This document shows, piece by piece, positions 41,830 through 51,288 of a stretch of DNA of 64,000 nucleotides (positions within the stretch are counted from its first letter, which is position 1; the number at the start of each line of letters is the position of its first letter). The position numbers and the translations under genes are program-made. The notes below the pieces were generated by a model, which saw nothing but the letters and a program-made list of their open reading frames with translations, did not search any database and was not told the origin of the DNA. Source of the stretch: Escherichia coli (GTDB lineage Bacteria; Pseudomonadota; Gammaproteobacteria; Enterobacterales; Enterobacteriaceae); the NCBI RefSeq assembly GCF_003334785.1, contig NZ_QOWV01000001.1. One strand, written 5' to 3'.

Positions 41830-42738
41830 ATGGCTTTTCAGGTAAAAATTCATCAAATTCGGGCTTTTGTTGAAGTGGCTCGTCAGGGCAGCATTCGCGG
41901 AGCGAGCCGAATGTTGAATATGTCGCAACCGGCACTGAGTAAATCTATTCAGGAGCTAGAAGAAGGGTTAGCGGCGCAACTCTTTTTTCGCCGTAGTAAA
42001 GGCGTGACGTTAACTGATGCCGGTGAAAGTTTTTATCAGCACGCCAGTCTAATTCTTGAAGAGCTGCGCGCAGCCCAAGAGGATATTCGCCAACGACAAG
42101 GGCAACTGGCAGGGCAGATTAATATCGGCATGGGGGCCAGTATTTCCCGCAGTCTGATGCCAGCTGTCATATCTCGTTTTCATCAGCAGCATCCGCAGGT
42201 AAAAGTACGCATTATGGAAGGGCAACTGGTGTCGATGATTAATGAATTGCGTCAGGGAGAATTGGATTTCACCATCAATACCTATTATCAGGGACCGTAC
42301 GACCACGAATTTACTTTTGAGAAATTACTGGAAAAGCAATTCGCGATCTTTTGCCGCCCGGGACACCCCGCCATTGGTGCCCGTTCGATCAAACAGTTAC
42401 TGGATTACAGCTGGACAATGCCGACGCCACACGGCAGCTACTACAAACAGTTGAGTGAATTGCTTGACGATCAGGCGCAAACGCCACAGGTCGGTGTAGT
42501 CTGCGAGACGTTCTCAGCCTGTATCAGTCTGGTGGCAAAAAGCGATTTTCTCAGCATACTGCCTGAAGAAATGGGCTGCGATCCCTTGCACGGACAGGGG
42601 CTGGTGATGTTGCCGGTTAGCGAAATTTTACCGAAAGCGGCCTATTATTTGATTCAGCGGCGTGATAGTCGCCAGACACCACTGACCGCGTCATTAATCA
42701 CGCAATTCCGGCGAGAATGCGGCTATCTGCAAAGTTAA
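41830..42738 (+). CDS. abgR: LysR-family regulator of abg operon
   Basis: 302 aa ORF, HTH plus LysR substrate domain; divergent from abgA. Confidence 0.85.
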   Translation: MAFQVKIHQIRAFVEVARQGSIRGASRMLNMSQPALSKSIQELEEGLAAQLFFRRSKGVTLTDAGESFYQHASLILEELRAAQEDIRQRQGQLAGQINIGMGASISRSLMPAVISRFHQQHPQVKVRIMEGQLVSMINELRQGELDFTINTYYQGPYDHEFTFEKLLEKQFAIFCRPGHPAIGARSIKQLLDYSWTMPTPHGSYYKQLSELLDDQAQTPQVGVVCETFSACISLVAKSDFLSILPEEMGCDPLHGQGLVMLPVSEILPKAAYYLIQRRDSRQTPLTASLITQFRRECGYLQS

Positions 42739-42745
42739 AACTGCA

Positions 42746-42840
42746 TAAAAAAATAGAGTCTGTCGACATCCGCCAGACTCTACAGTACACACAGCAGTGC
42801 ATCCGCGTCTTAAATCCGGCATTGTCTCCTCTGCGCCGGT
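42746..42840 (-). ncRNA. mcaS: small RNA McaS (IsrA)
   Basis: Minus-strand sequence ACCGGCGCAGAGGAGACAATGCCGGATTTAAGACGCGGATGCACTGCTGTGTGTACTGTAGAGTCTGGCGGATGTCGACAGACTCTATTTTTTTAT recognised from memory; ends in hairpin plus U-run; sits between abgR and smrA. Confidence 0.8.
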
Positions 42841-43067
42841 GACTGTGTTATAACGGTTTTAACCTTTAGTTGCCAATTTTCTTCAGTGACAGATTTCACG
42901 AAAATATAAGTTACATTATTAATATCGTGAATGAATAATCATGCATAAGTATTTTGCTTAAAATATCGGCAATATTTGGAACTTATTACTGGAAATTTGG
43001 GTAATACGTTGTTGGACCGACCCGGTCTGGTTATCATATCGCGCTCTTAATTGCGGGAGGATGTAAC

Positions 43068-43631
43068 ATGAACCTTGACGACAAATCGCTGTTTCTTGAC
43101 GCCATGGAAGATGTCCAGCCGCTGAAACGTGCTACCGATGTCCACTGGCATCCAACGCGTAACCAACGTGCGCCGCAGCGTATCGACACGCTGCAGCTTG
43201 ATAATTTCCTCACCACCGGATTTCTCGACATCATCCCACTAAGTCAGCCGCTGGAGTTTCGGCGGGAAGGGTTGCAACATGGGGTGCTGGATAAGCTGCG
43301 CAGTGGTAAATATCCGCAACAGGCGAGCCTGAATCTTTTGCGCCAGCCGGTGGAAGAGTGCCGCAAAATGGTGTTCAGTTTTATTCAACAAGCCCTGGCG
43401 GATGGTTTGCGTAACGTGCTGATTATTCATGGTAAAGGGCGGGATGATAAATCGCATGCCAATATTGTCCGCAGCTATGTGGCGCGCTGGCTGACCGAAT
43501 TTGATGATGTTCAGGCATATTGCACCGCGCTACCGCATCATGGCGGCAGCGGGGCGTGTTACGTCGCACTACGTAAAACGGCGCAGGCGAAGCAAGAAAA
43601 CTGGGAGCGCCACGCTAAGCGCAGTCGTTGA
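43068..43631 (+). CDS. smrA: Smr-domain DNA endonuclease
   Basis: 187 aa ORF with C-terminal Smr domain (LIIHGKG). Confidence 0.8.
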   Translation: MNLDDKSLFLDAMEDVQPLKRATDVHWHPTRNQRAPQRIDTLQLDNFLTTGFLDIIPLSQPLEFRREGLQHGVLDKLRSGKYPQQASLNLLRQPVEECRKMVFSFIQQALADGLRNVLIIHGKGRDDKSHANIVRSYVARWLTEFDDVQAYCTALPHHGGSGACYVALRKTAQAKQENWERHAKRSR

Positions 43632-43651: not shown

Positions 43652-44884
43652 TTATGCCGCCAGCACGCGGTTGCGTCCATCATTTTTCGCCCGATACAAA
43701 GCATCATCAACGCGTTTAAACAGTTCATCGATGCTTTCATTTCCTTCGTGATGCGCCACACCAATGCTGACGGTAAAGCGTGGTAAGCCCGAAATACTCA
43801 CTTTTGCCACGCTTACGCGGATAGTTTCAGCCAGCGAAAGCGCGGTATCCAGTGGGGTTCTTGGTAGCAATAAGACAAACTCTTCGCCTCCCCAACGAAA
43901 CACCAAATCGCCTTTGCGAGCGCAACTTTCGAGGGTGCGGGCGAGGGCGCATAACACCTCATCACCTTTAGAATGCCCATAGAGATCGTTAATGTGTTTA
44001 AAACGATCGGTGTCGATGAGCAACAAGCTGTAATCCTGAGCGATGGCGAGATGCTGCATTTGGCCTGGTTCCGTAATGTGATAAAACTGTCGCCGATTCA
44101 GTAATCCGGTCATCGCGTCATGGTGAGCAGCATGTTCCAGCTGCTCCTCCAGCCGTTTTTGCTCAGTAATATCATGCACAATACATAACATGAGCTTGTC
44201 GCCATAAATTTCAATCGGTCCGGCATAGGTCTGCACATGACGAGTCGAACCATCCGCCAGTTTATGAACAAAATTCAAAGGTTTATGACCACCGGGTAAA
44301 TGCGAGATTTCATGCATGATAGGCATGACGCGACGCCCGAGCATATTTATTTCCCAGGTATGTTTCTGGCACATCGTTTCATGGTTATAACCATAGAAAT
44401 TGAGCGCGGCGAGGTTAGCATCGACGATTTGTCCATCTCGTGACGGGTCAATCAACAACATTGGTGCAGAGTTAGTCAGAAAAAAGCGCGCATAAAAACC
44501 TTGTTTTTTGCGCTGATAATTTGCCGAGCGACTGGCTTTTAAACCCAGCGTTGCCGGCGCTTCGATACCTTCGAAAATAATCACCGGTTCTGTTTCTGTC
44601 AGCTTTCGCAAAACAAGCCGACAGCTCAATGCTGTTTCCTCTTCTTTACGCTGAACAGTGAGGATTTCGATAATATCGTGTTGGTTTTGCAGATCGGAGA
44701 GGTATTTCGGCAGTTCTTTTTGTGAGGAGACGGAATAGGGTCCGGTTCGTAGCTGACTAAACGTGAGGTCTTGCATCAACAGTTTCGCCGCGCTATTGGC
44801 ATAAATTAACTGTTCCTCAAAGGGCGAAACGATCCAGACAGGACTGGTGAGTAAGTCCAGGGTATTGAAGTTGTGCGTAATCAT
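43652..44884 (-). CDS. dgcM: PAS-GGDEF diguanylate cyclase
   Basis: ORF track 43652..44944; start taken at MITHNFNTL; GGEEF active-site motif present (RWGGEEFVLLL). Confidence 0.8.
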   Translation of the reverse strand: MITHNFNTLDLLTSPVWIVSPFEEQLIYANSAAKLLMQDLTFSQLRTGPYSVSSQKELPKYLSDLQNQHDIIEILTVQRKEEETALSCRLVLRKLTETEPVIIFEGIEAPATLGLKASRSANYQRKKQGFYARFFLTNSAPMLLIDPSRDGQIVDANLAALNFYGYNHETMCQKHTWEINMLGRRVMPIMHEISHLPGGHKPLNFVHKLADGSTRHVQTYAGPIEIYGDKLMLCIVHDITEQKRLEEQLEHAAHHDAMTGLLNRRQFYHITEPGQMQHLAIAQDYSLLLIDTDRFKHINDLYGHSKGDEVLCALARTLESCARKGDLVFRWGGEEFVLLLPRTPLDTALSLAETIRVSVAKVSISGLPRFTVSIGVAHHEGNESIDELFKRVDDALYRAKNDGRNRVLAA

Positions 44885-46217: not shown

Positions 46218-46339
46218 GCAGGTGAATGCAACGTCAAGCGATGGGCGTTGCGCTCCATATTGTCTTACTTCCTTTTTTGAATTACTGCATAGCACAATTG
46301 ATTCGTACGACGCCGACTTTGATGAGTCGGCTTTTTTTT
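46218..46339 (+). ncRNA. fnrS: FNR-activated small RNA FnrS
   Basis: GCAGGTGAATGCAACGTCAAGCGATGGGCGTTGCGCTCCATATTGTC...GACGCCGACTTTGATGAGTCGGCTTTTTTTT recognised from memory; terminal hairpin plus U8. Confidence 0.8.
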
Positions 46340-48101: not shown

Positions 48102-49037
48102 TTATTTCACTTCAACCACATTCAGCCGTAACTCATCCAACTGATTTTCATCTTCTTCTGGCTGCCAGCACGCCGGTTGTAGTGGGATCTCTTCGCGATC
48201 AAACGCCAGATCACCCCCGTTAACCACTTCAGAACCGTGGGTGATGCCTTTGAAATCGAACAGGTTGGTATCGCACAGATGCGACGGCACCACATTCTGC
48301 ATCGCGCTGAACATCGTCTCGATACGCCCTGGATAACGTTTATCCCAGTCACGCAACATGTCAGCAATCACCTGACGTTGCAGGTTAGGCTGTGAACCGC
48401 ACAGGTTGCACGGAATAATCGGGAACGCTTTTGCATCGGCAAATCGCTGAATATCTTTCTCGCGGCAGTAGGCCAGCGGACGAATAACGATATGTTTGCC
48501 ATCATCGCTCATCAGTTTCGGAGGCATACCTTTCATCTTACCGCCGTAGAACATATTTAAGAACAACGTTTGCAGGATATCGTCACGATGGTGACCCAAC
48601 GCGATCTTCGTCGCCCCCAGTTCCGTTGCGGTACGATAAAGGATACCGCGACGAAGGCGAGAACACAGTGAGCAAGTGGTTTTGCCCTCTGGAATCTTCT
48701 CTTTCACGATACCGTAAGTATTCTCTTCAACAATCTTGTACTCAACGCCCAGCTTTTCAAGATACTCGGGCAGAACGTGTTCCGGGAAGCCCGGTTGCTT
48801 TTGATCGAGGTTAACAGCCACCAGCGAAAAATTGATTGGCGCGCTTTGCTGCAAATTGCGCAGAATCTCCAGCATGGTATAGCTGTCTTTACCCCCGGAG
48901 AGGCAAACCATGATGCGATCGCCTTCTTCAATCATATTGAAGTCAGCAATGGCTTCGCCCACGTTACGACGCAGACGTTTTTGTAATTTGTTCAGGTTGT
49001 ATTGTTCTTTCTTACTAATTTCTTGATTTTGCGACAT
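48102..49037 (-). CDS. ttcA: tRNA 2-thiocytidine(32) synthetase (PP-loop ATPase)
   Basis: 311 aa ORF with PP-loop SGGKDS and Fe-S CxxC motifs. Confidence 0.9.
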
Positions 49038-49213
49038 TTAAAAGCGACTCAATTCGTTATATGGCATCAGAAGAGTATGCGTCATGCCGGAACGCCCAGC
49101 ATAAGAAATCTGATATAAAAAACTGTGGCGTGTATGGTACGGATTAGAGGGGAAAATGTCAGCACATTTGCGAAATGAATCAAAAAGCCCGCAGCAATGT
49201 GCGGGCGTTAGTG

Positions 49214-49729
<516 letters not shown>

Positions 49730-50922: not shown

Positions 50923-51149
50923 TGAATAAATCCTTTAGTTATTTTATTTGCCTTTTATCCCCATTTCGGGGAGTGAAAACATCCTAAAGGAGAAGTTCAG
51001 TTAGCCGATAAATATCATTTGTTACGCCTTAAGTAAAACCTTAATCAAATAATTCCTCTGAAATGATAATAAGTCTGGTGAATGTATCGAAGATAATACA
51101 TACAAAATAAAAATTATACTTTTAATTTGCTATACGTTATTCTGCGCGG

Positions 51150-51258
51150 GTTATATGCCTTTATTGTCACAGATTTTATTTTCTGTTGGGCCATTGCATT
51201 GCCACTGATTTTCCAACATATAAAAAGACAAGCCCGAACAGTCGTCCGGGCTTTTTTT
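51150..51258 (+). ncRNA. micC: small RNA MicC (ompC-targeting)
   Basis: GTTATATGCCTTTATTGTCACAGATTTTATTTTCTGTTGGGCC...AGCCCGAACAGTCGTCCGGGCTTTTTTT recognised from memory; terminal hairpin plus U-run; between ompN and pfo. Confidence 0.8.
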
Positions 51259-51288
51259 TTAGAATTGGATAATCCTTATCCAGAGCAT

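Follow-up and report, generated by a model that had tools for sequence, protein, structure and literature searches.

The question raised by this locus is whether the spacer between abgR and smrA of Escherichia coli holds a gene of its own, and if so, which one. The window analysed here is a stretch of 64,000 nucleotides from contig NZ_QOWV01000001.1 (assembly GCF_003334785.1). An annotation-based view of it would show an empty 329-bp spacer between the two genes (put at 330 bp in a preliminary description of the sequence), because RefSeq automated annotation lists only abgR and smrA and enters McaS in none of the sampled E. coli genomes. Among the records examined, mcaS is annotated only in the curated record of strain MG1655. 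The preliminary description had recognised the small RNA McaS on the minus strand of this spacer. The features of the locus are as follows.

42745..42840, minus strand: McaS (IsrA/IS061) small RNA, from Rfam RF00115 and identity to b4426.
41830..42738, plus strand: abgR, from the list of open reading frames and the RefSeq annotation of matching genomes.
43068..43631, plus strand: smrA (ydaL), from the same two sources.
43652..44884, minus strand: dgcM, also from these sources.

The entire window was scanned with Rfam 15 at gathering thresholds, and the family RF00115 (McaS/IsrA) was found at 42840..42745 on the minus strand. The match spans the whole model (positions 1-96 of 96), is not truncated, has maximal posterior probabilities throughout and scores 118.4 bits (E 1.9e-21) versus a gathering score of 42. 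The lack of an Rfam hit had been named beforehand as the outcome that would count against McaS; the opposite was obtained, and chance cannot explain a match of this kind. The RNA is also identical, at 94 of 94 nt, to mcaS (b4426) of K-12 MG1655 (NC_000913 1405658..1405751, complement), which is given in the curated record as an ncRNA on the complement strand, 8 nt past the abgR stop. Around mcaS, MG1655 and the window differ at 3 of the 8,399 positions compared, none of them within mcaS or the 120 nt preceding it. Besides the RNA sequence over the annotated 94 nt, the two strains share the neighbours abgR, smrA and dgcM, the promoter, the GGA motifs, the seed and the terminator; they differ elsewhere, the Rac prophage being missing from the strain studied here. 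The full-length RF00115 match and the identity with b4426 bear out the claim of a minus-strand McaS. It is thus nearly certain that this locus encodes McaS (IsrA/IS061), an Hfq-dependent, trans-acting RNA of ~95 nt with two functions. No evidence contradicts this identification, and the feature is already known and ordinary: a known regulatory RNA was correctly recognised in unannotated sequence.

McaS nucleotide n lies at 42841 - n of the window, and the RNA begins at 42840 (+1, A). It ends at 42745 according to Rfam, or at 42747 according to the equivalent of RefSeq b4426 (42747..42840, 94 nt). The interval proposed in the preliminary description, 42746..42840, had the right place, with a 3' end that is one base off both of these. 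The abgR stop codon (TAA) occupies 42736..42738, and the distance of 8 nt claimed between it and the RNA holds with the RefSeq end, while it becomes 7 nt with the coordinate used in that description and 6 nt with the Rfam end. The order abgR-mcaS-smrA is the same as in K-12, mcaS being convergent with abgR and divergent from smrA; both protein genes are on the plus strand and McaS, as had been proposed, is on the opposite one, overlapping neither gene.

Several elements can be recognised within the RNA.

42816..42839, minus strand: stem-loop 1 (McaS nt 2-25), from the Rfam structure line and the MFE and centroid folds.
42802..42804, minus strand: GGA motif at nt 37-39, from a motif search of the sequence.
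42786..42801, minus strand: seed segment UGCACUGCUGUGUGUA (McaS nt 40-55), complementary to the csgD leader.
42747..42783, minus strand: stem-loop 3, the intrinsic terminator, from the Rfam structure and the MFE and centroid folds.

The RNA has a three-stem-loop architecture with a Rho-independent terminator; both the MFE and the centroid fold contain stem-loop 1, stem-loop 3 and the U7 tail. Its MFE is -31 kcal/mol versus -24.4 ± 2.8 for shuffled sequences (z = -2.3). Stem-loop 1 consists of a 6-bp stem (CCGGCG/UGCCGG) and a 12-nt loop carrying GGA at nt 12-14 (window 42829..42827). The central region, nt 26-57, is single-stranded or weakly paired and holds both the GGA at nt 37 and UGCACUGCUGUGUGUA. 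Stem-loop 3 is a hairpin of 12 pairs (nt 58-88) with the loop GGAUGUCG, followed by seven U (UUUUUUU, nt 88-94), in agreement with the terminal stem-loop and U-run described from the sequence. A simple terminator scan missed this terminator, though it is visible by eye and in the fold, probably because the internal mismatch of the stem reads as a loop larger than the limit of 8. GGA motifs occur at four places (nt 12-14, 24-26, 37-39 and 70-72). This number matches the published count of four, of which two are reported to be bound by CsrA (PMC10729762, citing Jorgensen 2013); the CsrA-binding role of those found here is putative.

Immediately upstream of the RNA, two control elements were identified.

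42847..42876, minus strand: sigma-70-type mcaS promoter, from sequence reading and a regular expression, its position conserved across Escherichia and Citrobacter homologues.
42885..42900, minus strand: CRP-like site CGTGAAATCTGTCACT, from a sequence search, conserved in Escherichia and Citrobacter homologues.

The promoter comprises a -35 element, TTGGCA (42876..42871), an 18-nt spacer and a -10 element, TATAAC (42852..42847, positions -12..-7), at the proper distance from +1. Although visible by eye, it was missed by the consensus promoter scan, because the scan demands T at the last position of the -10 element. Another promoter-like match on the minus strand (42931..42903) was rejected as the mcaS promoter, as its start would precede +1 of McaS by ~55 nt. 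The core of the CRP-like site, GTGA-N6-TCAC, is at -59..-46 and is centred near -52.5 from the annotated 5' end. A centre near -52.5 is neither the classical class I nor the classical class II position of CRP. Because of this non-classical position, we go no further than to infer that mcaS may be activated directly from this site. Activation of McaS by cAMP-CRP has been reported (PMC3634460). Promoter elements keep their register across the Escherichia and Citrobacter homologues; the CRP-like site does so in all of these and is degenerate in the Pseudescherichia vulneris group. The site sits in a divergent control region common to mcaS and smrA.

The homologues were collected by a scan of other species, with one genome per species and a degenerate pattern over nt 53-85. 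Twelve loci were found, in E. albertii, E. whittamii and other Escherichia, in Citrobacter amalonaticus and relatives, and in P. vulneris and relatives, all 12 of them giving a full-length Rfam McaS match (75-109 bits). The conserved linkage is with smrA and not with abgR, because smrA adjoins mcaS in the divergent orientation in 10 of the 12 loci (the stored DNA stops short of the smrA side in the other two), whereas abgR is usually missing beside mcaS, some loci holding little DNA on that side.

In an alignment of 14 sequences, little or no variation is seen over nt 37-58 and the entire terminator, and the 5' third is variable; the same pattern, with a highly variable stem 1, has been described in a published analysis (PMC4824073). 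According to an alignment of 10 species, conservation of the spacer peaks at 42759..42798 (approximately McaS nt 43-82, the greater part of seed and terminator hairpin), with 97-99% identity to the window, a peak that is partly imposed by the pattern used for collecting the homologues (nt 53-85), though nt 37-52 were unconstrained and yet are nearly invariant. The 5' third of McaS is 51-67% conserved in this alignment, and a second conserved block of the spacer, at approximately 42879..42918 (68-74%), corresponds to the promoter and the CRP-like region. The claim that most conserved sequence in the gap belongs to McaS is therefore broadly right, and incomplete in that the conserved spacer also holds this upstream region.

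Covariation in the MAFFT alignment of 14 homologues did not exceed that of shuffles, and RNAalifold retained the terminator helix alone. Since the variable 5' third was misaligned between genera, the sequences were folded one by one in place of an alignment-based covariation analysis. Most homologues were predicted to form a 5' hairpin whose loop holds GGA or has it alongside, the fold being weak in the P. vulneris group; across the other E. coli alleles and species, the pairing of stem-loop 1 changes from G7-U20 to C7-G20 and, in Citrobacter, from CCGG/CCGG to CCCG/CGGG. Stem-loop 3 has an almost invariant helix, with 100% of cells paired in the 14 homologues. The support for the predicted structure rests on the hairpins that persist in individual folds and on the covariance model score. 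In the Rfam model, stem 2 (nt 33-38 paired to nt 47-52) is weakly supported: 83% of cells are paired, there are zero compensatory changes, and the stem is unpaired in several Citrobacter cells. For these reasons, target pairing accounts for the conservation of this stem better than structure does.

The targets considered, the csgD and flhD leaders, are both outside the window and were taken as MG1655 sequences. Unrestricted RNAduplex runs with the whole McaS gave over-extended duplexes that barely beat shuffles (12/300 for csgD and 53/300 for flhD), and an analysis of longest complements and local duplexes was used in their place. McaS nt 40-55 form a perfect Watson-Crick complement of 16 nt to positions -96..-81 of the csgD leader, while the longest complement in 200 shuffles was 10 nt. 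The GAUGUCG of loop 3 (nt 71-77) is a 7-nt complement to positions -61..-55 of the flhD leader, a match that alone is not above shuffles. The seed complement fits the distal binding site in csgD, which is needed in vivo (PMC6061853), and the match of loop 3 with flhD is consistent with the published pairing (PMC4824073, PMC3634460).

According to the published work, McaS pairs, aided by Hfq, with the distal site of the csgD leader, which leads to RNase E cleavage and to the loss of CsgD and curli (PMC6061853). Two papers assign the activation of flhD/flhDC to loop 3 pairing (PMC3634460, PMC4824073), and in two others it is stated that binding of CsrA by McaS relieves the repression of pgaA (PMC10729762, PMC6061853). 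The present analysis covers the identity of McaS, its boundaries, structure, promoter elements, motifs, csgD and flhD complementarity and conservation; for its presumed expression, Hfq and RNase E dependence, CsrA binding and CRP control, we rely on publications about K-12, whose McaS has the same sequence. Since the two molecules do not differ, the mechanism published for K-12 should apply here. The mcaS gene would be transcribed on the minus strand from its own sigma-70 promoter to the intrinsic terminator, and under nutrient limitation, with cAMP-CRP active, McaS would accumulate. Its conserved central segment would then pair, together with Hfq, with the far-upstream site of the csgD leader, so that RNase E cleavage switches off the curli regulator CsgD, and the loop of the terminator hairpin may pair with the flhD leader for increased synthesis of the flagellar master regulator. 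Finally, the GGA motifs might bind CsrA, derepressing pgaA and allowing more PGA polysaccharide to be made. McaS would in this way let nutrient status, via cAMP-CRP, decide between motility, curli and PGA biofilm, a picture that this analysis leaves as it was.

A different emphasis is that McaS is mainly a protein-binding RNA, either a CsrA sponge or an RNP with RNA polymerase core, S1, ProQ and PNPase, and not an antisense regulator. CsrA titration and binding to RNA polymerase core are both published (PMC10729762, PMC4824073), Rfam places the family in clan CL00106, and GGA is present at about nt 12, 37 and 70 in 14/14 homologues. One group has further argued that the extended csgD and flhD pairing is phylogenetically poorly supported and that McaS is an RNP on RNA polymerase core (PMC4824073). 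However, the 16-nt complement to csgD falls in the most invariant segment of the RNA, and both the distal csgD site and RNase E proved necessary for repression in genetic work (PMC6061853). Moreover, the protein-binding and pairing modes are not exclusive, the McaS of the literature being a dual-function RNA. It is thus rather unlikely that protein binding is the main mode of action, and the RNP view is a rival emphasis, not a different identity.

Like McaS, CsrB and CsrC have GGA motifs, some of them in hairpin loops, that bind CsrA (PMC10729762). McaS carries only four such motifs, versus 22 in CsrB, and binds approximately two CsrA dimers (PMC10729762); unlike CsrB and CsrC, it is also an Hfq-dependent base-pairing RNA (PMC10729762, PMC6061853). 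RprA, GcvB, OmrA/B, RydC and RybB resemble McaS in being Hfq-dependent and trans-acting and in repressing csgD by pairing with its 5' UTR, but they are unrelated to it in sequence and have other inducing signals and other pairing sites. Unlike these RNAs, McaS additionally activates flhD and titrates CsrA.

The conserved sequence might also be read as the 3' end of abgR, a terminator or a 3' UTR element, with no independent gene present. The hairpin begins ~15 nt past the abgR stop, so abgR transcription would enter it, but a U-run follows the hairpin on the minus strand only; the plus strand has an A-run before it and CAGTACAC after it, with no terminator tail. In addition, the element has its own conserved promoter, and the covariance model match extends over 96 nt, beyond the hairpin. 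The RNA is also full length where abgR is a remnant (strain EcN) and in several species without an adjacent abgR match, though some of these loci have little DNA on that side. The chance that abgR accounts for the conserved sequence is accordingly negligible. It is just as improbable that the transcript encodes a small protein, since the 42-codon ORF in the list of open reading frames (42822..42694, minus strand, AUG at McaS nt 19) passes the terminator and runs 50 nt into abgR, leaving the 95-nt RNA without a stop codon, has no Shine-Dalgarno sequence at a suitable distance except the GGAG of the CsrA-type loop, loses its AUG in other E. coli alleles and other species (AAUGCC to CAGGCC), and faces substitutions that sit in the 5' third without a codon pattern. 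McaS as an independent non-coding RNA is the reading retained below.

Within E. coli, the 96-nt McaS query matched 5368 of 5426 complete genomes. The K-12-like RNA is present at full length in about 3,900 of them, and in about 1,460 only nt 21-96 are matched, with ~97% identity. The latter genomes, which include Nissle 1917 (EcN) and an APEC O1:K1:H7 strain, carry a divergent allele, whose sequence and neighbourhood are described here from example genomes. Its promoter core and CRP-like site are identical to those of the K-12-like allele, nt 21-96 are ~97% identical, and the architecture of stem-loop 1, with GGA in the loop, is kept. Stem-loop 1 itself reads ACCGGUCACCAGGACCCCAGGCCGG, differing at ~8 positions, among them a compensatory change of G7-U20 to C7-G20. 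In the divergent-allele genomes, genes of an AraC-family regulator and of HlyD/MFS efflux are located between mcaS and smrA. The linkage of the divergent stem-loop 1 allele with this AraC/HlyD/MFS insertion was not found described in the McaS literature searched, and such an allele, linked to a structural polymorphism beside the mcaS promoter, is the sole mildly new item of this analysis. That the two stem-loop 1 alleles are functionally distinct, through CsrA affinity, stability or promoter context for instance, and thereby contribute to lineage differences in biofilm formation and motility, is a speculative and improbable suggestion.

Several individual genomes and records deserve mention. 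In EcN (locus L003, 869..2912), the efflux genes are present as pseudogenes, and the deletion of abgABT has left a remnant of abgR; EE72d (L005, 2812..5347) is another example of AraC/HlyD/MFS genes between mcaS and smrA. In FDAARGOS_943 (L004, 2551..4101), an IS4-family transposase is located in mcaS after about nt 71, with the terminator and the abg side lost, and this strain is probably a natural mcaS knockout. Matches were also obtained in a plasmid collection (PLSDB NZ_OL790696.1, NZ_CP141089.1, NZ_CP134663.1, NZ_CP141085.1 and CP054253.1), in records 4.8-4.9 Mb or 250-385 kb long that carry the label of non-mobilizable plasmids. A mobile plasmid copy of mcaS was rejected, as these records look like chromosomal sequence mislabelled as plasmid.

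Two other small RNAs were identified elsewhere in the window.

46218..46335, plus strand: FnrS small RNA, a full-length match to Rfam RF01796 (134.8 bits), between zntB and ynaL/dbpA, the position annotated in MG1655.
51147..51267, plus strand: MicC small RNA, a full-length match to Rfam RF00121 (125 bits), between ompN and nifJ/ydbK.

Colinearity with MG1655 stops at window position 49030 (NC_000913 1411941), inside the 5' end of ttcA and at the left end of Rac, and the strain lacks the cryptic prophage Rac that K-12 carries (window 49030..49214). The uspF and ompN genes come directly after the Rac-less junction, as in strain 720632. Because Rac is absent, FnrS and MicC are located just 5 kb apart here.
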